Shown one piece after another: positions 2,250-47,601 of a stretch of DNA of 64,000 nt (position 1 is the first letter of the stretch; each line of letters begins with the position of its first letter). Below the pieces are notes generated by a model that saw only the letters and a program-made list of their open reading frames with translations, made no database searches and was not told the DNA's origin. The stretch is from NCBI GenBank assembly GCA_034429675.1, contig DAOUFX010000230.1, positions 2,339 to 66,338 of the forward strand, written 5' to 3'. Made by a program: the position numbers and the translations under genes. Origin of the DNA: Anaerolineae bacterium. Lineage in GTDB: Bacteria > Chloroflexota > Anaerolineae > B4-G1 > SLSP01.

Positions 2250-2258
2250 GAACCGGCG

Positions 2259-3560: not shown

Positions 3561-3639
3561 CTTTTCCGCGTATCACCTCTACAATGGTTACGGTGCAACA
3601 AACCGTATAAATCTTAGGCACTAAAAAGGAGCAGAAAAC

Positions 3640-3978: not shown

Positions 3979-4003
3979 TTTAATAGGTACGGTCATTTAA
4001 AAA

Positions 4004-4032
4004 GCGGCTTCCTTTATGGAAGCCGCTTTTTT
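4004..4032 (+). terminator. rho-independent terminator (GCGGCTTCC tttat GGAAGCCGC TTTTTT)
   Basis: Read directly from the sequence: a 9-bp GC-rich stem (4004..4012 pairs with 4018..4026), a 5-nt loop and a T6 run at 4027..4032, 26 nt after the stop at 3978. An A-run precedes it, so it could act in both directions. It overlaps the first 17 nt of track ORF 4016..5848, which argues for a later RecJ start. Confidence 0.85.
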
Positions 4033-4120
4033 GACGCCTTTATATCCGCGTGGTATACTGCCTCTCACTATAAGAATTCCAGATGGCTTCTTTGCGATAG
4101 ATCTGGACATGGAGTGCGTT

Positions 4121-5848: not shown

Positions 5849-5866
5849 GGGTCAGGTAATTCCATA

Positions 5867-6820
5867 ATGAAAATTCTTGTGACCGGCGCGGCGGGTTTTA
5901 TCGGCAGCCATCTGGCCGAGACATTGCTTCAGCGCGGCGATGTCGTGGTTGGGCTGGACAACTTCAATGATTATTACGATCCTGCGCGGAAGCGGGCGAA
6001 CGCGGCGCTTCTGGCGGCTTATCCCAACTTTGTGTTGCACACGGTAGATGTGCGGGATGAAGCATCGGTTGCGCACATCCTGGCCGATGGCAGTTTTGAC
6101 GCGGTCGCGCATTTGGCCGCTATGGCCGGAGTGCGCTATTCTATCGAACGCGCTCCGCTCTATACCGATGTGAACATTCGTGGCACGGTCAATGTGTTGG
6201 AAGGAATGCGCCATGCCGGCGTCCCGCACATCGTTTTTGCTTCAACCTCGTCCGTTTACGGTAAAACCGACCGGCTGCCGTTTCAGGAAGACGATGCGCT
6301 CGGCAAGCCATTGGCCTCTTACCCCGCCAGCAAGATCGCCGGGGAGTTGATGGGCTACACGTATCATAACCTCTTCCAGATGTCATTCACAGCAGTGCGC
6401 TTCTTTAGCGTCTACGGCCCACGTGGCCGTCCCGATATGATGCCTTACCAGATTACCGATAGCATCGTTCACGACCGGGTTTTCAAACTTTACAATAGCG
6501 GCGAAATGTACCGCGATTGGACCTACGTGGGCGATATTGTCAAAGGAATTGTGGCGGCATTGGAGCGCCCGTTGGGCTATGCCTGCATGAATCTGGGACG
6601 CGGCGAGCCGGTGCGTATGGGCGATTTCGTCTCGTTGGTGGAGCGGCTGGTCGGAAAGCCGGCCCGGATGGAGACGCCTCCCGCGCCTGCCAGCGAGCCG
6701 CCGATTACATACGCCGATATTACGAAAGCTCGTGAATCGCTTGGTTACGCTCCGCATGTGTCGGTTGAAGAGGGCATGACTCGCTTCTGGGAGTGGTATC
6801 AGGCCAATATCCTCGATTGA
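5867..6820 (+). CDS. NAD-dependent epimerase/dehydratase (SDR family, UDP-sugar 4-epimerase-like)
   Basis: The N-terminal Rossmann motif is MKILVTGAAGFIGSHL. The catalytic YxxxK is in SYPASKIAGE. Length is 317 aa, with the NFNDYYDP and STSSVYG motifs typical of UDP-glucuronate or UDP-glucose 4-epimerases. Confidence 0.85.
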   Translation: MKILVTGAAGFIGSHLAETLLQRGDVVVGLDNFNDYYDPARKRANAALLAAYPNFVLHTVDVRDEASVAHILADGSFDAVAHLAAMAGVRYSIERAPLYTDVNIRGTVNVLEGMRHAGVPHIVFASTSSVYGKTDRLPFQEDDALGKPLASYPASKIAGELMGYTYHNLFQMSFTAVRFFSVYGPRGRPDMMPYQITDSIVHDRVFKLYNSGEMYRDWTYVGDIVKGIVAALERPLGYACMNLGRGEPVRMGDFVSLVERLVGKPARMETPPAPASEPPITYADITKARESLGYAPHVSVEEGMTRFWEWYQANILD

Positions 6821-6865
6821 CATTGATTGAACGAAACCCCGTTTGGTTCTTGACCTTTCAAAGGG

Positions 6866-8422: not shown

Positions 8423-8436
8423 AGGCAGTAGCTTTC

Positions 8437-9951
8437 ATGCAGTTGAAGTCGGATCGTGATCTGTATCGGCGGCGACGACAGACGCCCTGGTTCAGGATTT
8501 TTGTGTTGATGTTATTGGCGGGTATTGGCGGATATGTCGGCTATCTGGTTCTGGCGTTCAAGGAGTCGCCGGTAGTGGTTGGCGGTACACCGGTGCCAAC
8601 GCCGACGGTGACACCTGCCCCGGCCATCTATGTAGCCCAGGCGGAGGATGCATACTGGGCCGGGGATATGAGCGGCGCCATTGCGGCTTATCAACGCGCA
8701 TTGGACGTTGAACCCAATCAAGCCGAGGTGTACCTTGAGCTTTCGCGTCTCTTGACGTTTTCCGGCCAGCCGGAGCGCGGTATGTTGATGGCGCGCGAGG
8801 CGTTGCGACGCCAGCCGGAAAATGCCCGGGCCTGGGCCTTATTGGGGATGGCTTACGACTGGTTGGGGCTGCCTTATGAAGCGATTGAAGCGTGCGAGCA
8901 CGCGCGCTCCCTGGATCCGACCGTGCCTGAGGTGTACGCCTATCTGGCCGAGGCGTATATTGACGCCGGGAGTTGGGCTGCGGCCAATGAGACGATTGAT
9001 CTGGCCATGGAACTCGACGAAAACAATGTGGACGTCAAGCGCAATTATGGCTATGTCCTTGAAAGCCAGGGCAATTACTACGGCGCGATTGAAACCTACC
9101 GCGCGGCTCTGGAAATCGAGCCTAATTTGACCTTTCTGTACGCTTCAATTGGACGCAACGCCGGCGCCGTCAACGATTTGGTCACGGCGCGTGACGTCTA
9201 TAAACAGGCCATAGGGATTGATCCTCACGACGCATCCTTGCTGGATCGTCTGGGCTGGACTTATTTGTTGATAGGCGATTATGATCAGGCCAAGGAAGTC
9301 TTGCAGACCGCGCTGAAAGTGGATTCCAAATACGGCGACGCTTACGGCCATCTGGGGACGCTGTATTTTCAACAGCGCAATTATGAGGATGCTATTACCG
9401 CATTTGGCCCCGCGATCCGTTACGGTGAGGCGCGTTCCCGGCGCTCGACGGTGTTCTTCATTCTAACGGAGGAACCGATGGATGCGTTGGGCGCCGAGCC
9501 TTCCGGCCCGGAGGTGGCGCGGGCGACTTTTGTGCACCCGGTTGAGACGGATATGCCGTTGCGGGGCATCTTTGCCGGTTCCGAGACCTATCCGCAAATC
9601 CAGGGGTATATGCGCTTTGACGTTCTGAGTGGGCGATACGATATCGCATTGACCGGAATGCCGGCGGCGCCTTCCGGCAAGGTTTACGTTGGCTGGTTTG
9701 AGCCGCTCTCGTTGCCGGAACGCACGCAAGCGCGCACAGCTCCGATATTTCCGGCGCCGGATGGACAGGTGCGACTCTCGGGGGAGACGGGCGCCGTGAT
9801 GGGGCCGCCGATTGAGCATTATTACATTCTGGCGCTCAGCTACTATTATCTGGATCAATGTCCTCAGGCTTTGCCCTATATTCAGATTGCCCTCCGTCTT
9901 GATCCTGCCGATGCCAATGCTTTGCAGACGTTGCAGTGGTGTCAGCAATAA
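8437..9951 (+). CDS. TPR-repeat protein with N-terminal signal-anchor
   Basis: There is an N-terminal TM helix (FRIFVLMLLAGIGGYVGYLVLAF). Multiple TPR units follow (AIAAYQRALDVEPNQAEVYLELSRLL, AWALLGMAYDWLGLPYEAIEACEHARSLDP, YGAIETYRAALEIEPN, YEDAITAFGPAIRYG). Confidence 0.7.
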   Translation: MQLKSDRDLYRRRRQTPWFRIFVLMLLAGIGGYVGYLVLAFKESPVVVGGTPVPTPTVTPAPAIYVAQAEDAYWAGDMSGAIAAYQRALDVEPNQAEVYLELSRLLTFSGQPERGMLMAREALRRQPENARAWALLGMAYDWLGLPYEAIEACEHARSLDPTVPEVYAYLAEAYIDAGSWAAANETIDLAMELDENNVDVKRNYGYVLESQGNYYGAIETYRAALEIEPNLTFLYASIGRNAGAVNDLVTARDVYKQAIGIDPHDASLLDRLGWTYLLIGDYDQAKEVLQTALKVDSKYGDAYGHLGTLYFQQRNYEDAITAFGPAIRYGEARSRRSTVFFILTEEPMDALGAEPSGPEVARATFVHPVETDMPLRGIFAGSETYPQIQGYMRFDVLSGRYDIALTGMPAAPSGKVYVGWFEPLSLPERTQARTAPIFPAPDGQVRLSGETGAVMGPPIEHYYILALSYYYLDQCPQALPYIQIALRLDPADANALQTLQWCQQ

Positions 9952-9975
9952 TCCGGTGTAAAGGTTGGAGATACG

Positions 9976-12675
9976 GTGCGCACTTCCTCCATTGAATCAC
10001 GCAATCCCCAAAAGAACTCTCCTCAGGATGGTCGTTCCCGGTCGGCGCAATGGTTGTCGTTACTCCCGTTCGTTTTGATGTTGTCTGCTTTGGCCATTCT
10101 GTATCGGCGGTTGCTGGCCGGACGAGTACTGGCCGGTGGGGATTTGCACACATATTTCTTCCCCTATTGGGTCGCCGTAACGCGCGCCTGGCGGGAAGGA
10201 CACCTGCCGCTGTGGACGCCTTATCTCTTTGCCGGAACGCCCCTGCTGTCTAACTCCCAATTAGGAGTGTTTTACCCCCTGAATTGGCCCTTTTGGGCGC
10301 TGTGCGGGACGTCGTTGGCCGGTGTGGCTCAGGCATTGCATTGGAATTTGCTGCTGCATCTGGTGCTGGCGGCGTTTGCGAGCTATCGCCTGACTCGTCG
10401 ACTGGGTGTAGGGTCTTGGGGCGCTGCGTTGAGCGGGATTTTGTACGCGGGAAGTGGTTATCTGGGCTTGCACATCGAACATCTCAACCAGTTGCAGGCG
10501 CTTGCCTGGTTGCCCTGGGTGTTGATGCCTGCCAGGGACGCTCCGGAGAGCAAAGATGGATGGCGTGCGATATTGCCCTCGCCGATTAACATCATCGCCT
10601 TCACCTTGATCCTTCTGGCGGGACATACACAGATGGCGTTTATCACCGGGATTGCGTTGGTAGTGTGGCGTTTGGCGCTGGCCGTTCACTTGAGCCTGTT
10701 CGCTCATATCCAGGGCGGGAAGAAGTTTCGTGTTGGGATGCGCGAAGGTGGGCGCTCGCTGGTATCTTTATTTCCCTTTGTCCTGGCTGTTTTGGCGGCG
10801 GCCGTACAATTGCTGCCGACTCTGGAGTTGGCGCGTTTTTCAATGCGCAGCGGCGGATTGCCCTGGCGTGAGGCCGTGTCGTTTTCGATACGCCCGTGGG
10901 ATTTGCCGCGAGCTCTGCTGCCATTGTATGTAAGCACACCTTTATTGCCGGAGGGCGTCGCTTACGTGAGTGTGATCGGGATAGCGTTCGCCGGATGGGG
11001 AGTGTGGAATGCTATGGGCAACCGGGCCACCCGTAAGGACGATCGGTATGGGTTTGCGTTGGCCATTTTGGGGCTTGTTGGCCTGTTTTTAGCCCTGGGT
11101 GGATACAATCCGTTCTATTTGCTCGCGGCACGCCTGGGAGTGCCTGGAATTGTGCATTTCCGCGCTCCGGCGCGGTTCCTTGCCCTCTATGTGCTGGCAG
11201 CGGCATTACTGGCAGGAAAGGGTTTGGAGGCGTTGGCGAATGCCGGGATGTTGAGACGGCGGTATTGGCTGCTCGGCGGACTATGTGGATTGGCCTGGGT
11301 AGAGCTACTCGTCTCGGCTGAGTCTCTTCCGCACGCTGCCGCGACGGCGTTGCGCACGTATACGGATTTACGCCCCGCGACGGCGAATCTTGTTTCGGCG
11401 ACGCGGTTGGCCGAGAATGCCGGGGAACCTGCCGGACGGTTCCTGAGCATTTCAAAAACGCTGTTTGATGCAGGAGACGAAACCGCCGTTGCCGCTTTGT
11501 ATGGGGACCGGCTTACCGAGAAGTCTTTGTGGGCGTACAATGTCGCGGCGAAACAACGTGAAGTCCTGTCACCCAACTTCTCGTTGGCGTTCGGCGTCCC
11601 GGCCGTGGATGGATACGATGGGGGAATCCTGCCTCTGCGCCACTACGGCACTTTCTCGCGCCTGTTGCTTCCCGACGGTACTTTAGATGGACGGCTGCGG
11701 GAGAATCTGGAAACTGTGCCGGATGTGCGTTGGCTTTCCCTGATGGGCGTGCAGTTTGTGATCACCGACAAGACGGGCGATGCCTGGGCCGACGACGTTT
11801 TTTATGACCGTCAGTTCCAGCCTCAACTGAAACCGGAAGAAACCTTGACGGTGGCCTGGCTTCCGCAAGATTTTGCCGCCAATGCGCTCGGTGTGTTATA
11901 TGCCGGCGCCGGTGAGGTTGTGTTGCAATTCCATAGCGGAGAAGTGATTTCGCGCTCTTTGCCTTTGAGTACGGCTGATACGCCGGGGCGGGTGCATTGG
12001 GAGCAGGCGCAATCCGTGGAGCACATGACGTTGCGCGCCGGTGAAGGCGGATTGACTCTGACCGGCGCAAGTCTGGTTGATGAACGAACTGCCGCGTTTT
12101 ACCCATTGGTTCTCTCTCCACATTTCCGGCTGGTACATTCCGGCGATGTAAAGGTGTATGAGAATCTGGACGTTTTACCGCGAGCGTTTCTGGCGTCGGG
12201 ATATTCCTGTGTGGCTTCAGACGAGGACGGATTGCAGCAGATGCAAACCCCCGGATTTGATCCGGCGACTCAGGCGGTTGTATCCGATTGCGACGCTGCG
12301 GCACAGGCCGGGATGAAGGAGATACTCAATGCACCTTCCCAAGCGCAGGTGGACATCCTTACCTATAGTCCTACTGCCTGGGTGGTGGATGTGACCTCCG
12401 ATTCTGGCGGCTTACTGATTTTGACCGACGCCTGGTATCCCGGCTGGACGGCGACGCTGGTGCCACAACTCGGATCGGGCGCAAGGGTAGAACCCGCGCC
12501 GCTTTTGCGCGCCGACCTGCTCTTCAAAGCCGTGTTATTGGAGCCAGGAGCGTGGCGTGTGACCTTCACCTATCGCTCGCCCTGGTTATTTTGGGGTGCC
12601 GGCATTAGTGTGATCGGTCTGGGATTTCTAGTTCTGTACTATTTCTTTCTGCGGTATACGAGATTACCTCTCTGA
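9976..12675 (+). CDS. large polytopic membrane protein, YfhO-like (putative glycosyl-transfer or cell-envelope biogenesis membrane protein)
   Basis: GTG start 9976 has GGAG 5 nt upstream. The 899-aa protein has more than 10 TM helices in its first ~480 aa. A large extracytoplasmic domain follows, and a single C-terminal TM helix (GAGISVIGLGFLVLYYFFL) ends the protein. This architecture matches the YfhO/DUF2723-type family, but the assignment rests on architecture only. Confidence 0.5.
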   Translation: MRTSSIESRNPQKNSPQDGRSRSAQWLSLLPFVLMLSALAILYRRLLAGRVLAGGDLHTYFFPYWVAVTRAWREGHLPLWTPYLFAGTPLLSNSQLGVFYPLNWPFWALCGTSLAGVAQALHWNLLLHLVLAAFASYRLTRRLGVGSWGAALSGILYAGSGYLGLHIEHLNQLQALAWLPWVLMPARDAPESKDGWRAILPSPINIIAFTLILLAGHTQMAFITGIALVVWRLALAVHLSLFAHIQGGKKFRVGMREGGRSLVSLFPFVLAVLAAAVQLLPTLELARFSMRSGGLPWREAVSFSIRPWDLPRALLPLYVSTPLLPEGVAYVSVIGIAFAGWGVWNAMGNRATRKDDRYGFALAILGLVGLFLALGGYNPFYLLAARLGVPGIVHFRAPARFLALYVLAAALLAGKGLEALANAGMLRRRYWLLGGLCGLAWVELLVSAESLPHAAATALRTYTDLRPATANLVSATRLAENAGEPAGRFLSISKTLFDAGDETAVAALYGDRLTEKSLWAYNVAAKQREVLSPNFSLAFGVPAVDGYDGGILPLRHYGTFSRLLLPDGTLDGRLRENLETVPDVRWLSLMGVQFVITDKTGDAWADDVFYDRQFQPQLKPEETLTVAWLPQDFAANALGVLYAGAGEVVLQFHSGEVISRSLPLSTADTPGRVHWEQAQSVEHMTLRAGEGGLTLTGASLVDERTAAFYPLVLSPHFRLVHSGDVKVYENLDVLPRAFLASGYSCVASDEDGLQQMQTPGFDPATQAVVSDCDAAAQAGMKEILNAPSQAQVDILTYSPTAWVVDVTSDSGGLLILTDAWYPGWTATLVPQLGSGARVEPAPLLRADLLFKAVLLEPGAWRVTFTYRSPWLFWGAGISVIGLGFLVLYYFFLRYTRLPL

Positions 12676-13114
12676 TTCTCTCGGCAATCTGGCGGTGAAT
12701 TTCCTGCGGAATCTCTATCCGCCGACTGTGACTGTAGGGATTGCCAAACTCCGGATCTTCGAAAACCAAACCGTTTATTTGCACCAAGTGGTTATATCGC
12801 GGTACAACCCACCAATGAACATGAGGATTGGGTGGATTTTCACGAAACGAGAGGTTCATGTAGCAAGACCAGTTAAACATAGTTGTGTCAAATGCCATCC
12901 GTAATGCGCTTTCCAAAACTTTCACGATGGTTAACCATTCGAGCAATTCATCCGGTTTTGTATCGGCAATATCGCCACAATGCCTTTTTAAATGAAGGAT
13001 ACATCTTCCGATAAGGCTTTGATTAGGCGCCAGAACGGTCCGCCAAAATTGTGTTTCCAGTATTAACGGATAGTTGGGATTATCAGGTGACCATGAACAA
13101 ATGGGGCATGTCAT
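12605..13114 (-). CDS. HIT-like (histidine triad family) protein with variant HxHxW motif
   Basis: The start is set at the internal ATG (plus 13114..13112; translation MTCPICSW...) because a perfect AGGAGG (plus 13127..13122) lies 7 nt upstream. The N-terminus has a C-P-I-C zinc-ribbon-like motif. The C-terminal segment PHVHWWVVPRY matches the HIT signature H-phi-H-phi-H-phi-phi with the third His replaced by Trp. The gene lies in an AT-rich island, and its 3' end overlaps the convergent YfhO-like gene by ~70 nt. Confidence 0.55.
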   Translation of the reverse strand: MTCPICSWSPDNPNYPLILETQFWRTVLAPNQSLIGRCILHLKRHCGDIADTKPDELLEWLTIVKVLESALRMAFDTTMFNWSCYMNLSFRENPPNPHVHWWVVPRYNHLVQINGLVFEDPEFGNPYSHSRRIEIPQEIHRQIAERIREVISYTAERNSTELEIPDRSH

Positions 13115-13345
13115 ATTTTTACCTCCTGAGCATCTTACGAAGCAAGAGAATCCACGCTGAGTGTAAGTCAAACTTACGAAAACAGCAACGACTTGGAAAT
13201 TGGTTTTGCTTCTATTTGTATTACTTTTTGAGAACGGCTATAATGAAATTGCTCACGGTCGAGACTGTGTAAAGCGATTGTATGTGAGAACCATGAAAAC
13301 TTTTCTGTCTACTTTCTAAATCTTAACCGAATGGTTATCCTATGG

Positions 13346-13375
13346 TTTACCTTCAAAATTGTTTCGTGATATAAT
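13346..13375 (+). promoter_or_regulatory. putative sigma70-type promoter with extended -10 (TGaTATAAT at 13367..13375; weak -35 TTTACC at 13346..13351) driving the response-regulator/kinase/GAF array
   Basis: Read directly from the sequence. This is the only strong -10 consensus in the 240-bp AT-rich gap between the divergent HIT-like gene and the first response-regulator gene. It lies ~38 nt upstream of ATG 13413. Confidence 0.4.
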
Positions 13376-13412
13376 TTAGACAATTAACTGAAAATTACCA
13401 CGGAGGAGCGGC

Positions 13413-13814
13413 ATGTTCTTCGATGAACAAACATCTGGCAGAGGAGAAAAAATCCTATACATAGAAGACAATCCCGGAAATCGCATGCTGGTGCGTCGCA
13501 TTTTGATGGTAGAAGACTTCGTTGTCGTGGAGGCCGAAGACGGTCTACTCGGGGTTGAAGCTGCCTTGCGCGAGAAGCCGGACCTTATTTTGATGGACAT
13601 GAATCTCCCTGAAATGGATGGCTATGAATTAACCAAAAAACTCCGTAGTTTATCTGAGTTGGATGGAATCCCCATTATCGCGATGACGGCCAATGTGATG
13701 TTAGGGGACAAAGAGAAAACTCTGGAAGCCGGTTGCGACGGGTATATCCCCAAACCGATTGATGTGGATGAGTTGCCTCGCCAAATTCGCCGTTTTCTTG
13801 ATGCAAAGGGTTAA
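13413..13814 (+). CDS. single-domain CheY-like response regulator (receiver only)
   Basis: GGAGGAG lies 6 nt before the ATG. Receiver motifs are ILYIEDNPGN, the phospho-acceptor Asp in LILMDMNLPEMDG, the conserved T/S in IIAMTAN, and K in YIPKP. No output domain is present. Confidence 0.85.
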   Translation: MFFDEQTSGRGEKILYIEDNPGNRMLVRRILMVEDFVVVEAEDGLLGVEAALREKPDLILMDMNLPEMDGYELTKKLRSLSELDGIPIIAMTANVMLGDKEKTLEAGCDGYIPKPIDVDELPRQIRRFLDAKG

Positions 13815-13853
13815 TCAGCCACACAAGACTATCAAAATTTAGAGGCGTTAAGT

Positions 13854-14273
13854 ATGCCGTGGAAAACTACGTTGCCGCAAGAGGCCGTCATTTTAATTGT
13901 TGAGGACAATCTCAATAATTTTATTTTGATGACCCGCTTGTTGGCTTATCTTGGCGTCAAAAAATGTGAATGGAAAGCGTCTGGCTGGAAGGTTCTGGAA
14001 TTCGCCGAGACGTTAGGGATGATAGACCTGGTGTTGATGGATATGAACCTTCCCGACTCAGACGGCTATCAAGCATTGGCCTCCTTGCGTTCCCACAAAC
14101 GTTTTGAGAATGTCCCCATTGTTGCGGTGACAGCGCATGTTTCGTTGGAAAATGTGGATCGAGCGCGGCGCGCCGGATTTGATGGCTTCATCGGAAAACC
14201 ACTGGACCCAGATCGCTTTCCTGAACAAGTTCGCCGGGTTTTAGATGGTGAGGAGGTATGGGAACCGGATTAG
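13854..14273 (+). CDS. single-domain CheY-like response regulator (receiver only)
   Basis: Receiver motifs are ILIVEDNLNN, the phospho-acceptor Asp in LVLMDMNLPDSDG, VAVTAH and FIGKP. The product is 139 aa with no output domain. Confidence 0.85.
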   Translation: MPWKTTLPQEAVILIVEDNLNNFILMTRLLAYLGVKKCEWKASGWKVLEFAETLGMIDLVLMDMNLPDSDGYQALASLRSHKRFENVPIVAVTAHVSLENVDRARRAGFDGFIGKPLDPDRFPEQVRRVLDGEEVWEPD

Positions 14274-16612
14274 GTGAGAGACAAGAGGTTCTCGACGCTT
14301 CGCGTATGATTCCCACTACGGGGATGCGTGGCGGTTTGGGGAGAACGCTGTTGACTGCCTTTTTAATTCTCACTATTTTGCCGTTGACTCTGACGGTAGG
14401 GTACGCTACACAGCAGAACAGCCAAAATCTTCAACGGGAAGTTGAAAACAAGCTCCTGGCTTTGGCGACATTGAAGGGTGAAGCGCTTCGTCGTTGGTTG
14501 GATGATCTGCAAAAGTTGTTGGTGTTTTCCATAACGTTGGACGGAGGCCCTTCGCACGAGGGGTATGAATCGTGGTGGCTAACATTGCGTGAGCAATTGC
14601 CCGACTTAATGGGAGTGGTTGTCTTGGACCAAGATCAGCAACCCGTTTGGTCTGTTACTCAATGCCTGGAAATTTGGAATCAAATCTCCCCTCTTTCAGG
14701 CGACTCTTTATCCTCAACGAATTTGACTTTCTTTTATTCTGGCGTTATCTTTTTTTTACCATCTGCATACCATAATCAGACATTCGTGTTCTGTCTGGAT
14801 GGAAAAGGTTTGAATGAGGTCATTCAAGTTGGCGAGCCGGTCGAGCAAACCAATCATACTTATCTAGTCTATCGTTCATGCCTTTGGCCGGATACGACGC
14901 AGTGTGTGCTTCCTTCTATTGTGGATCAGCAAGCGGGGGGGGTAAACAGCGGTGTCTACGAGGATCATAATGGGATAACGGTTATTGGTGCTTACTACCC
15001 GTTGAATTGGTCCGAGTTGGGTGTGTTGGTGGAGCAGGATCAGGCAAAAACTCTGGAGTCATCGGACCGTATCGCGGCAACGTTTATCGCTCTGGTTCTG
15101 GCTGTGGCTCTAGCCTCAACCGCTATCTCAGCCGTGGTGATTCGTCAAATAACACAGCCGGTCATTCGACTCACCGAATCGGCGTTGGCCATGGCTGACG
15201 GTAAATTGGATCAGCATCTTGAAGTTACTTCACGGGATGAAATTGGGATCCTCACGTATGTGTTCAATGAGATGGCGGCGGATTTGAAATCCTTGTATGC
15301 GGACTTAGAGGCAAGGGTCGCCGTGAAAACTAAACAGATACGGCACTTCAACGAACAGATACAGCGAAGGTCTTTACATTTGCAGGCCAGTCAGAGTGTT
15401 AGTCAGGCGATCACTTCCATACGCGATCCCGATTTATTGTTAAGCCGTGTGACGGAGTTGATTAGAGACCGTTTTTTATATACCTCGGTAGCCATTTACA
15501 TGGTCGAACAGGGGGGCGGCGTAGCTTACATGCGCGCATTGAGCCCAGACACTCATGTAACTACGTCACAGGGCAGTGGAAATTTTTATGCGTGGCCTGA
15601 ATATGTCTACATTGGCGACGGCTCCATTGTAGATCGCGCTATTCGTAAGCGCGGTCCAGTCGTTGTGCCCAAAGAAACCGACGAAGAGATTGAGTGGTAT
15701 CGGCGCACTTTGTGTCAGGCAGTGGTTCCTTTGCGCATGGGAGACCGTGTAACGGGCGCGATTGCCGTTTTGAGTGCGGGGCGTGAAGGAATACAAGACG
15801 ATGAATTAGAGGTCTTGGGGTCGTTGGCGAATCAGGTTGCTATTGCTTTGGAGAACGCTCAGGCTTACGAACGTGAACGCTCGGCTACGCAACAGCTTGA
15901 AGAGGCCGAGGTGTTTAAGTCCCGGTTTATGGCGAATATATCCCACGAGTTACGCGAACCCTTGACCAATGTTATTGGGTTCTCGCGGGTGATTCTGAAA
16001 GAGATTGATGGCCCTTTGACCTCGCAGCAACGCGAAGATTTGGAGCGAATTTACAAGGATAGTCAGAAGCTTTTGAATTTGATCACCGACATTCTGGATA
16101 TCTCACAAATCGAAGCCGGTTTAACGGAACTGAAACTACAACCTGCGGATTTCCACGAAGTAGTCAACGATGTGATGCCTACAGCCAGCGCTCTGGTGCG
16201 CGGTAAGGATGTTAATCTGGTTCAGGAAATCCCCGCGGATCTCCCTTTTTTGCGGGTTGATTCGGCCAAAATCCGTCAGGTTTTGGTGCACCTTTTTACA
16301 AATGCTGCTAAGTTCACCGAACAGGGCGAGATCAAGATAGGCGCCCGGCGCAGCGAAGATTATGTGTATGTGAGCATAAGCGACACCGGCGTAGGAATCC
16401 AACCGGAAGATTTGAACAATATCTTTACCAGTTTCGGACGGCTTGGTCATAGAAGCATGCAGCAGGGGCCAGGATTGGGACTGGCATTGAGTAAGAAGCT
16501 TATTGAGATGCATGGGGGGGAGATTTGGGTGCAAAGTGAGGAGGGAGAAGGAACAACGTTTACCTTCTCCTTACCTTGTTATGCACCTTCAGACGCACCC
16601 GAATTAGAGTAG
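14258..16612 (+). CDS. sensor histidine kinase: TM–periplasmic Cache-like–TM–HAMP–GAF–HisKA–HATPase_c
   Basis: The start overlaps the preceding response-regulator gene by 16 nt. There are two TM helices (LLTAFLILTILPLTLTV and AATFIALVLAVALASTAISAVVI). A HAMP domain spans QITQPVIRLTESALAMADGKLDQ...DEIGILTYVFNEMAADL. A GAF domain follows. The HisKA phospho-acceptor His is in FMANISHELREPL. ATPase N, G1, F and G2 boxes are HLFTNAAKF, SDTGVGI, FTSFGR and GPGLGLALS. This is the only catalytic output domain in the whole locus. Confidence 0.9.
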   Translation: MGTGLGERQEVLDASRMIPTTGMRGGLGRTLLTAFLILTILPLTLTVGYATQQNSQNLQREVENKLLALATLKGEALRRWLDDLQKLLVFSITLDGGPSHEGYESWWLTLREQLPDLMGVVVLDQDQQPVWSVTQCLEIWNQISPLSGDSLSSTNLTFFYSGVIFFLPSAYHNQTFVFCLDGKGLNEVIQVGEPVEQTNHTYLVYRSCLWPDTTQCVLPSIVDQQAGGVNSGVYEDHNGITVIGAYYPLNWSELGVLVEQDQAKTLESSDRIAATFIALVLAVALASTAISAVVIRQITQPVIRLTESALAMADGKLDQHLEVTSRDEIGILTYVFNEMAADLKSLYADLEARVAVKTKQIRHFNEQIQRRSLHLQASQSVSQAITSIRDPDLLLSRVTELIRDRFLYTSVAIYMVEQGGGVAYMRALSPDTHVTTSQGSGNFYAWPEYVYIGDGSIVDRAIRKRGPVVVPKETDEEIEWYRRTLCQAVVPLRMGDRVTGAIAVLSAGREGIQDDELEVLGSLANQVAIALENAQAYERERSATQQLEEAEVFKSRFMANISHELREPLTNVIGFSRVILKEIDGPLTSQQREDLERIYKDSQKLLNLITDILDISQIEAGLTELKLQPADFHEVVNDVMPTASALVRGKDVNLVQEIPADLPFLRVDSAKIRQVLVHLFTNAAKFTEQGEIKIGARRSEDYVYVSISDTGVGIQPEDLNNIFTSFGRLGHRSMQQGPGLGLALSKKLIEMHGGEIWVQSEEGEGTTFTFSLPCYAPSDAPELE

Positions 16613-16651
16613 TTTGATTGGCCTGGCGTATACCCTTTTGGGGAGGCTGGT

Positions 16652-18520
16652 GTGAGCAAGAAGCAAGAGACGACTGGAAATACTGCTCGGTCATTTCAGG
16701 ATACTGAAGTATGGCGGCGAGAGCTGTTTGGAAAAACCATGCTGGTTCTTTCCATACTATCGTTTGTCGTGCTGGTGTCAGGGTTGTATTATGTCTCAGC
16801 TACTCAAAAGGCCTGGTCGGCGCCGATTCTACTGTTTTTTTATGGATTGATTGTTGCTGCTGCTTTTGTCCAGAAAATTCCTTTCACCTGGCGCGTCTGG
16901 ACGTTTTTGAGCGTTTTGCTTGCAATGAGTGTTTTCGATCTGTTGACGTATGGTTGGGGCGAAGATGGAAGGATCTATCTACTCGGAGCGACGCTGTTCG
17001 CGATTCTATTTCTGGGCGCGCGACATGGCTTCGTTGTTTTTGTGATTTCCAGTACGATTTTGCTCGCTTATGTCATCGCCGCTTCGACTGGTATTCTATC
17101 ACTGGTTAGTTCCCCGGAAGTGATTCATCCTCCTGCGACCTTGTGGATGGGTTTGGCTATCTATATGGTGATTTCCACAGGCTTATTCATTTCATTCAAT
17201 TATATTCTCCCACGCCTGCTTGACGCTCTGCAAAAGGGTGTTGATCTTTCCCATGAGTTGGAGGTCGAACGCGCTCGATTGGCCGAGCGGACGAGCACTT
17301 TGCAAAACGCCAATGTGAACCTCCAACGTCGGGCGTTTTATTTGGAGTCAAGCACTCAAATTGCTCAGGCTCTGGCGACGATGGTCGAGTTAGATACTTT
17401 GTTGGACCAGGCCGTGAATTTGATTGCCGGTGTTTTCAGCTTTTCTCACGTCGCTGTTTATCTGATGGATGGTGAAGAAGAGTGGGCGGTGCTGCGCGCG
17501 GCTTCTTCTGCCGAGGGGCATCGCTTGTTGGCAAATCAGCATCGTGTTCTTTGTGGCAGCGATTGTATGATAGGGCAGGTATCCCAGGATTCACAGCCGC
17601 GCATGGCCGGGGTGACGCCTGATCTGCCGCCCGCTCGTTCAGAGATGACGTTGCCGTTGCTGGCAGGGACTCAGCGGATAGGGGTTTTGGATATTCAGAG
17701 TACTGAGGAAGCGGCTTTTGATCAGGATGATATGCGTGCATTGCAGGGATTGTCCGGTGTTCTGGCGGCGGCAATCAGCAATGCGAAGCGTTTGGGGGAT
17801 GAAGCCTCTGTGTTGGAGGCGGCAAGTCCGCTATACCATTTGGCGCGCCGTTTGGCAACGGCGCGCATCGAGCGTGAGATTTACACTGCAATTTTGGAGT
17901 CTTTGCGCGGATTTAGTCCGACGCAGGCCTTTATTTTCCGTTTTGAAGAGGGGCTTCCTTCTGCCTACATGGTAGCCGAGATGCGGAAGGGAGAGTTGGC
18001 ATTTCACGAGCAACGCGTGTGGGCGTCGGATATGCAATACCTCAGCGAGATTGTGGCCTTCAGTATGGCCGTTAGATCTTCTGTGATGATTGGCGACCTG
18101 AAAGAATATCAGTCAGGGCAGGCTGACATTGACGCCGTTTTGGTGCATCTGGCTGAGGATCTGGGAATTCTTTCCTTAGCTTTGACGCCGATGTGGGTCG
18201 GGTCGGTGCTTGTGGGAACTTTGTTGGTCATTTATCAGGCTCCGCATTATTTCACAGCTCTGCAGGGTCAGCTCTATCGTGTTCTGGCCGATTTAGGCGG
18301 ACGCGCTCTGGAGCGTATCTGGTTGCTTCAGCAAGCCCAGGCTCATTTGGAGAGTGAGCGTTGGATTAGAGAATTTGGTGAAGCTGTGACACGTATTCCC
18401 GATTTAGAAACGATGATTGCACAGTCGGCCACTTTGTTGCAGGATGTTTCAAAATCCGATGGCGTGTTGATTTCTTTGAGCGCACCTGAGCAGGAATCCT
18501 TGGAGGCGCCCGGTGAATAA
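16652..18520 (+). CDS. GAF-array member A: polytopic membrane N-domain + S-helix + GAF-A + GAF-B; no output domain
   Basis: GTG start 16652 has GGGGAGG 8 nt upstream. There are ~6 TM helices in aa 25–195. The coiled coil is LEVERARLAERTSTLQNANVNLQRRAFYLE. GAF-A runs FSFSHVAVYLMDGEEEWAVLRAASSAEGHRLLANQHRV...PDLPPARSEMTLPLLAGTQRIGVLDIQS. A divergent second GAF follows. The C-terminal tail is ...QAHLESERWIREFGEAVTRIPDLETMIAQSATLL. Confidence 0.8.
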   Translation: MSKKQETTGNTARSFQDTEVWRRELFGKTMLVLSILSFVVLVSGLYYVSATQKAWSAPILLFFYGLIVAAAFVQKIPFTWRVWTFLSVLLAMSVFDLLTYGWGEDGRIYLLGATLFAILFLGARHGFVVFVISSTILLAYVIAASTGILSLVSSPEVIHPPATLWMGLAIYMVISTGLFISFNYILPRLLDALQKGVDLSHELEVERARLAERTSTLQNANVNLQRRAFYLESSTQIAQALATMVELDTLLDQAVNLIAGVFSFSHVAVYLMDGEEEWAVLRAASSAEGHRLLANQHRVLCGSDCMIGQVSQDSQPRMAGVTPDLPPARSEMTLPLLAGTQRIGVLDIQSTEEAAFDQDDMRALQGLSGVLAAAISNAKRLGDEASVLEAASPLYHLARRLATARIEREIYTAILESLRGFSPTQAFIFRFEEGLPSAYMVAEMRKGELAFHEQRVWASDMQYLSEIVAFSMAVRSSVMIGDLKEYQSGQADIDAVLVHLAEDLGILSLALTPMWVGSVLVGTLLVIYQAPHYFTALQGQLYRVLADLGGRALERIWLLQQAQAHLESERWIREFGEAVTRIPDLETMIAQSATLLQDVSKSDGVLISLSAPEQESLEAPGE

Positions 18521-20213
18521 AGAGAGCAGAACCGAAGCGTTGCGCGTTACTGCGCCACGCCTTCGCGAGTGGCAATTGTCATTGCTAACGCAAATTTTGA
18601 GAATATTGGTCTTTACTGTGTTGTTGGTGATGTTGCCGGCTATCATTTTTGTGAGAGGGGAGCATCACGGTGTTGAGTTTATCGTTTTCTATGGAGTAGC
18701 CTTTTCTGTTTTGCTTATTTTGCGGTTTATAAAAAACATTCCCTACACGATAAAGGTTGTGGGATTGCTGGTTTTAATTTATGCATTGGGTATCTCGGCA
18801 TTGTTACGCGCGGGTTTAGGTAGCAATGCTAAGATTTTTTTGATCGCGTTGCCGTTCACGGCAATGTTGCTTCTGGGCAAATGGGAGGGATGGATTTGCC
18901 TGGTGGGGTCGTTTCTCACGATGGTGGTGTTTGGAGTACTGTTCTCCAACAATATCCTCTCCATTCCCACCGGGGTGCAGGTGATATCGCATAAGGTGGA
19001 AGCCTGGGGCAGTTATATCTTGACGATGACGTGGGCCGGCGCGTTTTTTGTGGCGACGCAAAGTTACATGCGGTCGCGTTTGGTGAGCGAGCTGGCGCAG
19101 AGCTGGGCGATGGCGCAGGAGCTGGATGTGCAGCGTGCGCAGGCTGAACGTGACGCAGTGCGCGCTCAGTTACATGCCGAACAGATGGGATGGATTGCGA
19201 ATTTTGGCAATATCTTGACTTCATTGCGAAATCGTGATTTGTTGGTTCAACGTGTTGTGCAAGATCTGGTCCAGAATTTTTCGCTGTATCAGGTCAATTT
19301 CTTTCTGGCCGATCGTTCTGGCGACGTATTGAACCTGGTCGCTGCCGCCGGCGCGCAAGGCCAGGATGGAGTTGGGGCGATGGTGCCGGAAATGGTAGGG
19401 GGACGTTCCCTTTTGGGGCAAGTCGCTCAGACCGGAAAAGAGCAGTCCCGCGTGCTTGATGTTGGTCAGCTTGCGTTGTTGCCTGACAGTCGTTATGAGG
19501 TGGTTTTGCCATTGGTGGTACGTGGTGAGCTTTTGGGAGTGCTGGATATTCACAGTACAGATGTCACTCTCTCCGAAGCTTCGCTTCAGCTTTTCCGCAT
19601 TGTTTCCGGCTATGTGTCAGGCGCTCTGGATACATTGCGCTTATTTGAAGAATCTGAGCGGCAGACTCACGAGATGCGTATGCTCTACGCACAGCATGTC
19701 GTGGCTTCCTGGCGTTCATTGTTAGCCGTTGAGTCTCTCCCGGCGTACTCGCTCGGCGCATTGCCAGCGGACCGTGCGCGTGAAGTGGCCGAGGAGGTGT
19801 TGCGCGATCGGCAATCCCGGTTGCTCACGTTGGCGGACGATCAGGGTCATTTGTTGGTAGTTCCTTTAATTGCTCGTGACGTGGTGTTGGGTTATCTGGC
19901 TTTTGTGAGGGCTTCTTCTAAAGGAACATGGGATCAAGAGTCGCGTGCTCTTATTGAGATGGCGGCCGATCGGTTGGCGTTGGCCCTGGATAACACCCGC
20001 CTCTTGATTGAAGTGCGACGGCAGGCTTTTTATCAAGAGCAACTGCGCCGTGTAGACGATGTCATTTGGCGCAATCCCAGCCCGGACGTCATTATGGCGC
20101 AGAGTGTGCGTGAACTCGGTCGTTTTTTGGGGGCCGGCGAGGTGCAATTGTATATCGCCCCCATGCAGCAGGAAGAGGGCCCCAATGGGGATAAATCGGT
20201 TGGCGATGAGTAA
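18513..20213 (+). CDS. GAF-array member B: polytopic membrane N-domain + coiled coil + GAF + GAF; no output domain
   Basis: GTG start 18513 overlaps the previous gene by 8 nt, and GGAGG lies 6 nt upstream. There are ~6 TM helices. The coiled coil is ELDVQRAQAERDAVRAQL. GAF-A runs FSLYQVNFFLADRSGDVLNLVAAAG...VVLPLVVRGELLGVLDIHS. GAF-B and the tail run ...DNTRLLIEVRRQAFYQEQLRRVDDVIWRNPSPDVIMAQSVRELGRFLGAGEVQLYI. Confidence 0.75.
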   Translation: MNKESRTEALRVTAPRLREWQLSLLTQILRILVFTVLLVMLPAIIFVRGEHHGVEFIVFYGVAFSVLLILRFIKNIPYTIKVVGLLVLIYALGISALLRAGLGSNAKIFLIALPFTAMLLLGKWEGWICLVGSFLTMVVFGVLFSNNILSIPTGVQVISHKVEAWGSYILTMTWAGAFFVATQSYMRSRLVSELAQSWAMAQELDVQRAQAERDAVRAQLHAEQMGWIANFGNILTSLRNRDLLVQRVVQDLVQNFSLYQVNFFLADRSGDVLNLVAAAGAQGQDGVGAMVPEMVGGRSLLGQVAQTGKEQSRVLDVGQLALLPDSRYEVVLPLVVRGELLGVLDIHSTDVTLSEASLQLFRIVSGYVSGALDTLRLFEESERQTHEMRMLYAQHVVASWRSLLAVESLPAYSLGALPADRAREVAEEVLRDRQSRLLTLADDQGHLLVVPLIARDVVLGYLAFVRASSKGTWDQESRALIEMAADRLALALDNTRLLIEVRRQAFYQEQLRRVDDVIWRNPSPDVIMAQSVRELGRFLGAGEVQLYIAPMQQEEGPNGDKSVGDE

Positions 20214-20227: not shown

Positions 20228-23068
20228 ATGTTGCCTGATTTGCGTCAAATTTTTAACCTATTGGCCTGGTTATTGGCGATCTCCCAATTGGTTTTTGGGC
20301 TTTATATTATTTTCCTAAATCGCGGTCGCCCGGCAAACCGATTGGCCGTGGGTGGAACCTTTGGACTCGTTGCGGTGAATTCGTACGCGTTTGCGCTGCT
20401 TCTGGGCGCTGACGATGTGTCCGTGGCCTTGCATGCGACGTACGTTCTGGCGGCTACTTCTCCCATGCTGGGATGGGCTTTTCTGAGCGATGCTTTGATT
20501 TTGTTGCGGCCTCGCTGGTATGCAAAACGTCTCGCTTTGTGGGTTGGCATTCTCATAGGTTTATTTGCCTTGCCGGTCTTACTTACTTTTGTTGACGTTG
20601 TTTGGGGGACTAATCTCTGGTATTCCGGCCTGGATGTTGACACCTACAAAGTGGGCTCAGTGACATTGATGATGTACACCAGGGGCTATTTCTCCCCGGT
20701 GATTCACGGTGTATTTGGGTATCTGCCCCTCGGATTGTTCCTGATTGGAGTACTGTGGTTGGGACACGTTCGCCCACACCCCGATTTTCCGCGGAGTCAC
20801 TATTGGGTGTGGCCCTTTTTATTGGTTCAGGTGCTGGCGACAGCGATGTATTTTGTCTCCTCGGCTCTATCCGCGCCGATCGTTGTCCCACTTGTTTTCA
20901 ATGGGCTGTGTGTCGGAACCTATGCCATTGCATTTTTCACCCCGGCGCTTCTGGGACACTCTATGCAACGGGGAAGTTTGCGAACACGCCTGACAATTCT
21001 CATTTTTGTCATTGCTGTGCCTATTTCGGTCTTTGGCGTTATGCTGGTAGGATACCAGGCCGTGGGGATGGTCGAGGAAAGCGAGACGCGACGGTTGGCT
21101 GCGCGCAACGATGCTTTAGCTACCAGCATCAATGTATGGCTCAATATTCACGTCAATGCTCTGGCTGAGGTTGCGAAACAACCCGCTATTGTGACAATGG
21201 ATCCTGAACAGCAGGGGCCGGTTCTTAAATTGATGGATGATATTTACTCCAGCGTGTATTTGGTCAGCACCACAGATTTGACCGGGATGAATGTCGCTCG
21301 GAGCGACATGAAAGAGCCCACGTATTACGGTGACCGGCAGTGGTTCTTAAATGCGCGCGCCGGGGTATCTCCGGCGTTGGAGATTGTGCTAGGGCGCACG
21401 AGCGGAGTGCCGGCTTTGGTTGGCGCGATGCCTATCACGCAGACAGACCAGACCATTGTGGGAATCGTGATGTTTGCCAGTACCTTGTCGGATGTCGCCG
21501 CTCAGGTCAAAACTACTGAAATAGGCGAGTCTGGATTCGCTTATATTGTGGATCAGGAAGATCAGATTCTGGCGCATTCCGACCCGGAGGTGACAGCTCA
21601 CGTGACCGATTTCAGCGCTTACCCACCTGTGATGCAGTTGCGCGCCAATGTCGAGGGATTGGTCAAGTTCCGCGACAATTCGGGGCAACGTTGGTGGGCT
21701 TATGTGCGCAGCGCCGGGCCAGGTTTGGGCGTCATTGTTCAACAGCGTGAAGAAGAAGTGTTGCGCGGGACGCGGCAATTTCAGTTGGTCTATTGGGCGG
21801 TCACGTTAGTCGGGGCCTTGTTGCTGACGACTCTGGGATTTATGGCTGTACGGCAGGCTTTCCGCCCGATTTTGACGTTGACCGAAACGGCTCAGGCCAT
21901 TGTGCAGGGGGATTTGGCCCGGCTGGCCCCCGTTGAAAGCGAAGACGAGATCGGCACGTTGGCGCAGACGTTTAATTTGATGACGGCGCAACTGCGCACT
22001 TTGATCGAGACTTTGGAAGAGCGTGTGGCAGAACGCACGAGAGCGTTGGAAAGGCGTGCCGAGTATCTGGCTGTGACGGCGCGAGTGAGCCGGGTAACGG
22101 CCTCGATTTTGGATGTGGACACTCTGCTCACGCGGGTTGCCAATCTGATTTCTGAACGGTTTGGGTTTTACCATGCGGCAATTTTCCTGATTGACGACAG
22201 CGGCGAATGGGCTGTGTTGCGCACCGTTTCTTCTGAAGATGGAAAGCGTATGTTGGCGCGAGGACATCGTTTGCGCGTTGGCGAGCAAGGGATTGTGGGG
22301 TATGTCTCAGGCGCCGGCCGTCCGCGCATTGCTTTGGACGTGGACGAAGATACCGTATGGGTCAAGAATCCCGACTTGCCGAACACCCGTTCGGAGATGG
22401 CTTTGCCTTTGCAGGTACAAAACCAGATCATTGGGGTATTGGATGTGCAGAGCGTGGAACCCAATGCTTTTTCAACCGAGGATGTGGAGACGTTGCGCAT
22501 CCTTGCCGATCAGGTAGCCATTGCGATCCAGAACGCGCGGCAGTTTCGACAGAGCCAACAGATGCTCCGGGATTTACAACATGCCTATAGCGAGCTGGGG
22601 CAGCGGAGTTGGGCGACGTGGACGGCCTCGCATGTAGGGTATCAGTATATGCCGACAGGCGTTACTGCGATTCAGGCCTCGGAAGTGGCGACAGAAACGC
22701 CATCTTCGACGCAAGTGACAGACCCGAATATTTTGTGGGTGCCGTTACAATTGATCGGCGGACGGGTTTTTGGCGCATTGCGTTTGCAACGGGACATTGC
22801 GTACCCCTGGACGGAACAGGAGATTCAATTTGTGCAACAGGCGGGGCAAGCGATTGCGCAGGCATTGGAGGTGTCGCGTTTGCTGGAAGAGGCGCAGCGG
22901 CGAACGACTCGCGATCGTCTGGTTGGGGATATTGCCAATCAGTTGCACACGACGCTCGATCCAGATGTGATTATGAAAACATTGGTGCGTGAGTTAGGCC
23001 GTGTTTTGGGCGCGCGGGTGGCCTCTGTCGAAGTGACCGGTGGGCGTCCTCCCACGGGGATCGTCTAA
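20228..23068 (+). CDS. GAF-array member C: ~8-TM membrane domain + periplasmic Cache-like + TM + HAMP + S-helix + GAF-A + GAF-B; no output domain
   Basis: The HAMP domain is RPILTLTETAQAIVQGDLARLAPVESEDEIGTLAQTFNLMTAQL. The S-helix is LEERVAERTRALERRAEYLAVTARV. GAF-A runs FGFYHAAIFLIDDSGEWAVLRTVSSEDGKRMLARGHRLRVGEQGIVGYV...PDLPNTRSEMALPLQVQNQIIGVLDVQS. The tail is RDRLVGDIANQLHTTLDPDVIMKTLVRELGRVLGARVASVEV. Confidence 0.85.
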   Translation: MLPDLRQIFNLLAWLLAISQLVFGLYIIFLNRGRPANRLAVGGTFGLVAVNSYAFALLLGADDVSVALHATYVLAATSPMLGWAFLSDALILLRPRWYAKRLALWVGILIGLFALPVLLTFVDVVWGTNLWYSGLDVDTYKVGSVTLMMYTRGYFSPVIHGVFGYLPLGLFLIGVLWLGHVRPHPDFPRSHYWVWPFLLVQVLATAMYFVSSALSAPIVVPLVFNGLCVGTYAIAFFTPALLGHSMQRGSLRTRLTILIFVIAVPISVFGVMLVGYQAVGMVEESETRRLAARNDALATSINVWLNIHVNALAEVAKQPAIVTMDPEQQGPVLKLMDDIYSSVYLVSTTDLTGMNVARSDMKEPTYYGDRQWFLNARAGVSPALEIVLGRTSGVPALVGAMPITQTDQTIVGIVMFASTLSDVAAQVKTTEIGESGFAYIVDQEDQILAHSDPEVTAHVTDFSAYPPVMQLRANVEGLVKFRDNSGQRWWAYVRSAGPGLGVIVQQREEEVLRGTRQFQLVYWAVTLVGALLLTTLGFMAVRQAFRPILTLTETAQAIVQGDLARLAPVESEDEIGTLAQTFNLMTAQLRTLIETLEERVAERTRALERRAEYLAVTARVSRVTASILDVDTLLTRVANLISERFGFYHAAIFLIDDSGEWAVLRTVSSEDGKRMLARGHRLRVGEQGIVGYVSGAGRPRIALDVDEDTVWVKNPDLPNTRSEMALPLQVQNQIIGVLDVQSVEPNAFSTEDVETLRILADQVAIAIQNARQFRQSQQMLRDLQHAYSELGQRSWATWTASHVGYQYMPTGVTAIQASEVATETPSSTQVTDPNILWVPLQLIGGRVFGALRLQRDIAYPWTEQEIQFVQQAGQAIAQALEVSRLLEEAQRRTTRDRLVGDIANQLHTTLDPDVIMKTLVRELGRVLGARVASVEVTGGRPPTGIV

Positions 23069-47587: not shown

Positions 47588-47601
47588 GGAGGATTGAGGC
47601 T

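Follow-up and report, generated by a model that had tools for sequence, protein, structure and literature searches.

In a 64,000-nucleotide stretch of DNA from an Anaerolineae bacterium (Bacteria; Chloroflexota; Anaerolineae; B4-G1; SLSP01), referred to here as the window (GenBank assembly GCA_034429675.1, contig DAOUFX010000230.1, positions 2,339 to 66,338 of the forward strand), two stand-alone receiver proteins and one sensor histidine kinase are followed by at least 21 genes whose products have varied sensor domains and no kinase domain. Our preferred reading, held tentatively and at a confidence somewhat short of probable, is that the locus is a conserved multi-sensor, one-kinase operon in which the output-less sensors modulate the kinase–receiver pair by non-covalent contact through a common C-terminal helix and truncated GAF element, the helix-stub.

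A conserved unit of receivers, kinase and kinase-less sensors

The gene order within the window is first receiver (RR1), second receiver (RR2), kinase and then kinase-less sensors up to the window end. Orthologues of the kinase form a group of more than 120 clusters with 43–87 % full-length identity, all of them named Anaerolineae, Anaerolineales or Chloroflexota. A scan of GTDB at one genome per species yielded 34 full-length orthologous kinase loci, all from metagenome-assembled genomes (MAGs), which were annotated over 10-kb flanks by open reading frame (ORF), hidden Markov model (HMM) and BLAST analysis. The order receiver, receiver, kinase, array is found in all 34 loci wherever flanking sequence exists, RR2 being absent only from L023 and L028. 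Likewise, in five of five metagenome or MAG loci (L005, L006, L007, L011 and L012), RR1, with or without RR2, is followed directly by the kinase and then by four to five GAF-only genes. The upstream genes are unrelated in two of these five loci, and the conserved order persists where upstream neighbours differ. Identity over the five is 47–61 % for the kinase, compared with 29–55 % for array members and 83–84 % for a neighbouring lyase. Overlaps between RR2 and the kinase, and between the kinase and the next gene, recur among orthologous loci, often as a stop codon over a start codon. Up to six GAF genes that bear the common module described below occur per 10-kb flank of the 34 loci, most with the terminal stub, and in the first five loci every downstream gene ends in the module, stub included. 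The gene directly 3' of the kinase, a MASE11-GAF type in the window, is of that type (~620–700 aa) also in L005–L007 and in many of L013–L048. No second HisKA kinase was found within 10 kb downstream in the orthologous loci.

The receivers are the best-conserved components of the locus. RR1 orthologues are 57–85 % identical (median 68 %), with the acceptor motif kept in 31/31, and RR2 orthologues (n=29) are 66–82 % identical (median 76 %). The window and L005 share the order of their first five array genes, collinear orthologues being 43–55 % identical versus 26–45 % to the next-best paralogue. Since collinear orthologues are closer than paralogues, the array is old, ordered and individually maintained, rather than a recent burst of duplicates. 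Gene order conserved in 34 species-level genomes, together with the overlaps and the receiver conservation, makes functional coupling well supported, and from this genomic evidence there is good support for regarding kinase, receivers and kinase-less array as one conserved, tightly packed unit. The original prediction, made from the window's sequence, had proposed a shared output hub; the conservation of its parts as a unit agrees with that proposal, and the hub itself is plausible and unproven.

A further locus, L004 (positions 347–17487 of ENA ERZ25039513 contig_27635), encodes receivers, one of them 52 % identical to RR2, a ParA-like ATPase and several GAF-only sensors, some of which are split by apparent frameshifts, and its tail is a 1581-aa poly-GAF HisKA-HATPase-receiver hybrid kinase. 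This arrangement, in which a GAF-only array stands between a receiver resembling RR2 and a single poly-GAF hybrid kinase, supports the reading of many sensors around one kinase.

The head kinase and its two receivers

The sensor histidine kinase (14258–16612, 784 aa) lies, as do all large genes of the window, on the plus strand. Its N-terminal part consists of a first transmembrane (TM) segment, a Cache-like periplasmic domain (approximately residues 53–275) and a second TM segment, and Pfam places behind these HAMP (294–344), GAF (390–531), HisKA (554–621; 67.7 bits) and HATPase_c (668–774; 103 bits). The H-box SHELREPL (15941–15964) contains the phospho-accepting His563 (15944–15946), and the HATPase_c catalytic domain (16259–16579) contains the N (Asn682), G1 (DTGVGI), F and G2 (GPGLGL) boxes, so that the catalytic motifs are intact throughout. 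The Cache domain of the kinase gives no Pfam match even at E<=10; the label ‘Cache-like’ holds based on profile–profile alignment (hhalign) of the periplasmic region to the dCache regions of the array, which gives 97.6 % probability and an E value of 4.5e-12 over 212 columns. Additionally, the kinase orthologue P0231 has a precomputed PF02743 match. The TM-Cache-TM-HAMP-GAF-HisKA-HATPase_c layout originally read from the sequence was therefore borne out except for the Cache call, which Pfam does not reproduce and which the profile match supports as Cache-like. Against array members, the kinase is 24–31 % identical for most and 21 % for one, over HAMP-GAF only, and its low identity marks it as a distant paralogue.

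Across kinase orthologues, conservation is highest in HAMP (0.84) and ranges from 0.34 to 0.74 elsewhere, with HisKA at 0.66 and the catalytic domain at 0.59; the high HAMP conservation would be compatible with an extra interaction surface on the kinase. The periplasmic domain (14414–15082) is the least conserved segment (0.34), and its consensus retains cysteines (vWs.G.C, tlv.Cl) that hint at disulfides.

Both genes directly upstream of the kinase encode receiver-only regulators, as had been predicted, each with a Pfam Response_reg match and a complete acceptor pocket. RR1 (13413–13814, 133 aa, 97 bits) has E18/D19, the acceptor Asp62 within LMDMNLP, Thr92 and Lys114, and RR2 (13854–14273, 139 aa, 75.7 bits) has E17/D18, the acceptor Asp63, T93 and K115. 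The best partial NCBIfam matches of both are to the receiver domains of the hybrid kinases BarA, TorS and RcsC, and to the single-domain regulator EpsW. The 3' end of RR2 overlaps the start of the kinase gene by 16 nt, and from adjacency, this overlap and conserved synteny, phosphotransfer from the kinase to RR1 and RR2 is the default prediction. In the 64-kb window, no further HisKA/HATPase_c came up when every large ORF was scanned with Pfam.

The kinase-less array and its common module

Within the window, the array comprises 20 large genes (16652 to 63561), a 213-aa mini protein and a partial gene from ~63539. Its inputs are MASE11 in five members, dCache plus HAMP in seven, HAMP only in two, a LacI-type solute-binding domain in one and six PAS plus four GAF domains in one, the remaining members having membrane N-termini to which Pfam assigns no family. 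The first member (16652–18520, 622 aa) is a MASE11-GAF protein with a divergent C-terminal module. Twelve further sensors (18513–46806) are separated by gaps of <=14 nt or overlap, and all end in the order GAF, GAF2, helix and stub; these are MASE11 sensors (genes starting at 18513, 35459 and 38712), dCache plus HAMP sensors (20228, 23083, 25851 and 31333), a Peripla_BP sensor (28547), a protein with a membrane N-terminus lacking a Pfam match (33726), HAMP-only sensors (37236 and 45028) and the PAS-rich protein (40444). The last of these (40444–45024, 1526 aa) looks soluble and ends in the common stub; its true start is uncertain, since its TTG start overlaps the preceding gene by 41 nt. Six more sensors (49625–63561), all with the terminal module and stub, comprise dCache/HAMP proteins (49625, 52047 and 59829), a MASE11 protein (54788) and two whose N-termini have no assignment (56704, 1064 aa; 61801). 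The mini protein (48966–49607, 213 aa) consists only of an N-terminal coiled coil, a compact GAF2 and the stub, and matches the module at 146.8 bits.

The cytoplasmic core common to these proteins runs from an S-helix through a full GAF domain, a linker helix (ERRAYGE..W), a compact GAF domain and a long helix (ALERARLY..TQRRAARE) into the stub. The stub is ~45 residues long, with the consensus rlvgEIt.rmResLDvdtvLrTAVrELGraLgl.eV.VrL, and is followed by a short tail, variable in sequence and either acidic or rich in proline; an example is found at 35304–35435 of gene 33726–35444, RLVSEATSRMRQTLDVEAVLKTAADEIYQALQLDEIVVRLATKH. Judged by its sequence, the stub is the truncated N-terminus, i.e. 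the helix or helices and first strand, of another GAF domain, because gene 25851–28541 continues the same sequence into a complete third GAF domain and then a second stub, and because the profile, when aligned to poly-GAF proteins, passes from the stub straight into the repeat that follows. On the same two grounds, the idea that the stub is a degenerate dimerization and histidine phosphotransfer (DHp) helix, suggested by the resemblance of RMRExL to SHELREPL and by hmmsearch aligning both, was rejected. The original prediction that all paralogues stop after their GAF modules is accordingly right in that none has a kinase domain and incomplete in that all end in a helix and a ~45-aa truncated-GAF stub. 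No output domain is recognized in the module, which suggests that it lacks an enzymatic output.

The AlphaFold2 (AF2) model of the C-terminal module (mean pLDDT, the per-residue model confidence, 85) shows a small GAF-like sheet between long helices (helix 98–143), with the stub region forming a helix (147–162) and then an unpaired extended end. Structurally it comes closest to the tandem-GAF regions of the phosphodiesterases PDE5, PDE6 and PDE2. The possibility that the stub makes up for a missing part of GAF2 was rejected, the AF2 monomer being a complete small GAF-like sheet with the tail unpaired. Over 88 C-terminal modules from ~35 genomes, no part of the common module is under stronger constraint than the helix-stub (2.12 bits per column in the stub versus 1.58 in the GAF2 core).

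Exhaustive searching with a profile of the module gave 97,040 cluster representatives at E<=1e-3, of which 11,780 reach E<=1e-30. Heading the list are proteins of 1,100–3,950 aa with 6–21 tandem module copies, many of which end with the module (P0023–P0172, up to 3,952 aa), and the seven poly-GAF proteins scanned have GAF domains only, plus MASE11 in one. Gene 23083–25854 has a ~200-aa insertion with no family assignment between the first GAF domain and the C-terminal module, and at 7700–10540 of L002, one assembly of the same organism, the orthologue of gene 20228–23068 is split into 691-aa and 242-aa genes, which reflects either an assembly error or a strain-level disruption of one sensor, other contig variants being intact.

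Proposed mechanism and its precedents

In the mechanism that we favour, each sensor would couple a different input (MASE11, dCache plus HAMP, solute-binding or PAS) to the common S-helix-GAF-GAF2-helix-stub module and would act as an accessory co-sensor, its helix-stub contacting the kinase or the kinase–receiver complex non-covalently. Such contact would tune the kinase/phosphatase balance of the head kinase, so that many inputs would together set how far RR1 and RR2 are phosphorylated. We infer that sensors and kinase touch physically, that the helix-stub is the surface by which they do so, and that information flows from sensor to kinase. The logic would be that of MCP-CheA or NreA-NreB, and mixed dimers in register would not be required.

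The original prediction held that one kinase with many kinase-less co-sensors has no well-described precedent, which was an overstatement; the signalling logic has precedents, from which the components of the locus differ. Chemoreceptor arrays join many methyl-accepting chemotaxis proteins (MCPs) to one CheA and to CheY. The locus resembles them in its many kinase-less TM receptors, its dCache/HAMP-type inputs, its common cytoplasmic module, its one kinase and its CheY-like receivers, and differs in that its module is GAF-GAF-stub and its kinase is a membrane HisKA type with a Cache-like input of its own. MCPsignal (PF00015) has no match in any array member at E<=0.01, CheA, CheW, CheB and CheR are absent from the window, and neither CheA nor CheW was found in the 10-kb flanks of the orthologous loci, as far as their annotation reaches. 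In the staphylococcal NreA-NreB-NreC system, NreA inhibits NreB by direct contact when nitrate is lacking (PMC8139620). As with NreA, the GAF proteins of the locus lack an output domain and share an operon with a kinase and a regulator; unlike NreA, which is one small soluble GAF protein, they are at least 21 in number and mostly membrane-bound, multi-domain sensors with tandem GAFs and a stub, and their contact with the kinase is a proposal.

In the stressosome (RsbR paralogues/RsbS/RsbT) and in partner-switching systems such as SiaABCD, paralogous sensors whose N-termini vary share an assembly domain at the C-terminus and converge on one kinase (PMC9765535, PMC9237128). The window is similar in holding pairs of slr1658 (GHKL, kinase-like) and slr1659 (STAS-like) genes, considered below, and dissimilar in that its array sensors end in GAF-stub, with no STAS domain found in them by Pfam scans, and in that no PP2C phosphatase is encoded in the window. 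RetS-GacS is a case of kinase activity set by other sensor proteins through protein contact and not phosphotransfer (PMC8498467), and DivL, of the DivL-DivK-CckA network, is a kinase that has come to serve as the sensor of a single-domain regulator in its phosphorylated form (PMC4211667). Some head-kinase orthologues, like DivL, have lost the acceptor His; in contrast to RetS and DivL, which retain DHp and catalytic (CA) domains and make contact DHp to DHp or DHp to response regulator, array members have neither DHp nor CA. The AF2 model of the array module is like the tandem GAFs of PDE2, PDE5 and PDE6 in its long connecting helices. Unlike those proteins and the GAF tandems of cyanobacterial cyclases, which carry a covalent catalytic domain, the array chains end at the first helix and strand of the next GAF.

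A bolder version of the proposal is unlikely. It would hold that Anaerolineae have built receptor arrays from non-chemotaxis parts, with dozens of kinase-less membrane receptors, alike in their GAF-GAF-stub signalling module, docking by their helix-stubs onto one HisKA kinase with two CheY-like proteins. Such an array would be an independently arisen analogue of MCP-CheA-CheY, and its kinase would be a His-less pseudokinase in some lineages.

Weighing the alternatives

Several observations count against the proposal that the sensors act on the head kinase. The kinase itself lacks the GAF2-stub module common to all sensors, and its orthologues match the GAF part only; if GAF2-stub is an assembly domain, the kinase lies outside that assembly. 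The acceptor histidine is replaced by Arg or Gln in eight of 58 sampled orthologues, with His, Arg and Gln accounting for 51, six and two, respectively, of 59 aligned sequences. Arg occurs in P0245, P0247, P0249, P0255, P0273 and P0275 and Gln in P0281 and P0285, the variant H-boxes reading NMSRELxxPL or NMSQELRGPL. The His-to-Arg loci that were fetched (L011/L028, L023 and L029) still carry GAF-stub arrays in three of three cases, which implies that His-Asp transfer from the head kinase is not the array's only raison d'être. The module is also abundant in output-less GAF-only proteins (the 11,780 representatives at E<=1e-30, many with 7–21 repeats), and so functions in contexts not tied to the head kinase. 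The end of the array has not been seen, since an exact 60-mer from the window end is unmatched in genome and metagenome contig collections, and two slr1658/slr1659 cassettes with the mini GAF2-stub protein offer a second candidate output in the window.

The alternative that draws on most of these points, an independent output for the array, is possible, though on the doubtful side. Here the GAF-stub sensors would signal via a partner other than the head kinase, which might be an effector beyond the visible array, a small-molecule GAF ligand or the slr1658/slr1659 cassettes with the mini protein as adaptor, and the trio of receivers and kinase would simply be the sole part of a paralogous family to form a complete two-component system, retained in the operon for co-expression. 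A kinase without GAF2-stub, arrays that persist beside His-less kinase orthologues and the many output-less poly-GAF proteins elsewhere would all fit this explanation, as would the two cassettes.

The cassettes lie mid-array, in tandem, and are followed directly by the 213-aa mini GAF2-stub protein, which could tie them to the array. Each has an slr1658-family gene (47006–47587 and 47989–48567; GHKL, with a SiaB/RsbW/SpoIIAB-like fold) and an slr1659-superfamily STAS-like gene (47599–47952 and 48600–48953), with NCBIfam scores of 218.6 and 226.6 bits for slr1658 (cutoff 200) and 123.9 and 157.2 bits for slr1659 (cutoff 100). An AF2 model of an slr1658-like protein (pLDDT 84) has UsfX, SpoIIAB, RsbW and SiaB as its top Foldseek matches, with SiaB (6kko_A) at a TM-score normalized to the query of 0.52, and by family and predicted fold these proteins resemble partner-switch Ser/Thr kinases. 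As a result, the original description of the head kinase as unique in the locus stands insofar as it is the only histidine (HisKA) kinase in the 64 kb, but not insofar as it would be the only kinase-like protein, two GHKL proteins of the slr1658 family also being present. In Synechocystis, pgr5 rises ~thousand-fold when the regulator Slr1658 is lost, through an unknown mechanism (PMC7555055, PMC6525291).

Cassettes of this type do associate with multi-sensor arrays. The locus L093 (7219–17776 of GCA_016926805.1 JAFGNV010000066.1, an Anaerolineae MAG) has a double slr1658/slr1659 cassette and a PAS kinase heading at least five kinase-less sensors that end in STAS, which makes it the stressosome-like equivalent of a GAF-stub array. 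Against the cassettes as the output of the present array, the first 10 kb behind the kinase contain no cassette in any of the 34 orthologous loci, in which linkage of the two receivers and the kinase is universal, and the cassette is therefore treated as a lineage-specific addition. A GAF-stub neighbour occurs in none of 44 metagenomic slr1658/1659 loci of >=5 kb, where the neighbours include PP2C phosphatases in 28/44 and kinases in 14/44. The window has no SpoIIE/PP2C phosphatase, which is unusual for a cassette. As a general output of the arrays, the slr1658/1659 cassette was rejected on the two zero counts, 0/34 orthologous flanks and 0/44 cassette loci.

A second alternative, reverse or feedback flow akin to DivL, is improbable. 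It would have the kinase-like protein and the phosphorylated receivers acting on the sensors, with either a phosphorylated receiver or the kinase docking on the helix-stub and so setting the sensitivity or assembly of the sensors, or else the kinase sensing a phosphorylated receiver. Its appeal lies in the His-to-Arg/Gln orthologues, whose ATP-binding boxes are kept (Asn682 and the G1 residues invariant in 59/59, the first G2 glycine in 57/59), recalling DivL, the sensor of phosphorylated DivK (PMC4211667). Both receivers consist of a single domain and are conserved better than any other component, and RR2 is missing from two of three His-to-Arg loci (L023 and L028) but from none of ~27 His-bearing loci. 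The two RR2 losses may, however, go back to one event shared by related lineages, the window kinase has every catalytic motif, making forward phosphotransfer the default, and under this scheme the sensors would still require an output.

The original prediction had the kinase-less sensors form mixed heterodimers with the kinase through S-helix/GAF coiled coils, which now seems very improbable. Conserved co-localization would suit such dimers, heteromeric inhibition is known for RetS-GacS (PMC8498467), and the HAMP/S-helix stretch is 25–40 % identical in eight of the nine HAMP-bearing members (17 % in the ninth). The heptad comparison by which the prediction was to be checked came out otherwise, the helix lengths of kinase and array differing by one heptad. 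The HAMP-to-GAF helix of the kinase (residues 345–389, ~15290–15425) exceeds the corresponding helix of array members by exactly one heptad, and, measured with an HMM of the array HAMP-S-helix, there are seven additional residues in 153 of 156 kinase orthologues and none in 42 of 55 kinase-less HAMP-bearing proteins. With this mismatch, in-register pairing is impossible for HAMP and GAF at once. Moreover, the MASE11, PAS and solute-binding members lack HAMP, no member has a DHp, and the sensors have GAF2 at the position of the kinase DHp, so that a heterodimer, left with half a DHp bundle, could only inactivate the kinase.

It is hardly credible that the array members are functionless decoys or duplicates in decay; they have no recognized output domain, but all array ORFs are long and intact, collinear orthologues in other species are closer than paralogues, the stub is strongly constrained over ~35 genomes, and a split gene appears in one contig variant (L002) only.

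Setting of the locus within the window

The locus is preceded by housekeeping-type genes (804–12675) encoding AAA+/TPR, TPR, RecJ, epimerase, aromatic amino-acid lyase, TPR and large membrane proteins, from which RR1 is separated by a 737-nt gap of lower GC content. The best sigma-70-like promoter candidate (13346–13375, plus strand; TTTACC-18-TATAAT with TG, 10/12 matches) lies ~40 nt 5' of RR1; it is only suggestive, promoter-like sites in the region upstream of RR1 being no more numerous than in shuffled sequences. A terminator scan likewise gave a result no higher than shuffled expectation. From RR1 to 46806, 17 genes are tightly packed, every spacing being <=39 nt or an overlap, and larger gaps precede 47006 (199 nt) and 56704 (197 nt). 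RR1, RR2, the kinase and the sensors are probably co-transcribed.

Over 12001–20000, GC falls from ~0.58 to 0.48–0.52 across the promoter gap, receivers, kinase and first array genes and rises again along the array. The gap before the locus also contains a minus-strand ORF (12605–13171, 188 aa; a 169-aa gene in source contigs) with no family match. At the other end, a further membrane-protein gene begins (63539–64000, plus strand) and runs past the window end, so the array is unfinished there; the source contig continues only ~4.7 kb farther. The sequence also stands on an 84-kb metagenome contig (JGI 3300023207), and several assemblies contain identical copies.

Significance for signalling in Anaerolineae

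Anaerolineae are abundant, largely uncultured filamentous bacteria and, to our knowledge, their signalling is essentially unstudied. No description of the locus or of the GAF-stub module was found in the literature, and the conserved multi-sensor, one-kinase locus is apparently undescribed. Its noteworthy features are the at least 21 sensors, their common truncated-GAF terminus and the natural His-less variants of the kinase. The locus is well suited to testing, as it occurs in many species and offers a defined candidate docking element, the His-less variants and soluble mini versions. If sensors do act on the head kinase as proposed, the locus would represent a third bacterial route, besides chemoreceptor arrays and stressosomes, from dozens of signals to one output, and it would give a role to a very large unexplained class of output-less GAF-only proteins, of which the 11,780 cluster representatives are a measure. 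If the bolder receptor-array version were true, the truncated-GAF stub would be a new kind of docking element.

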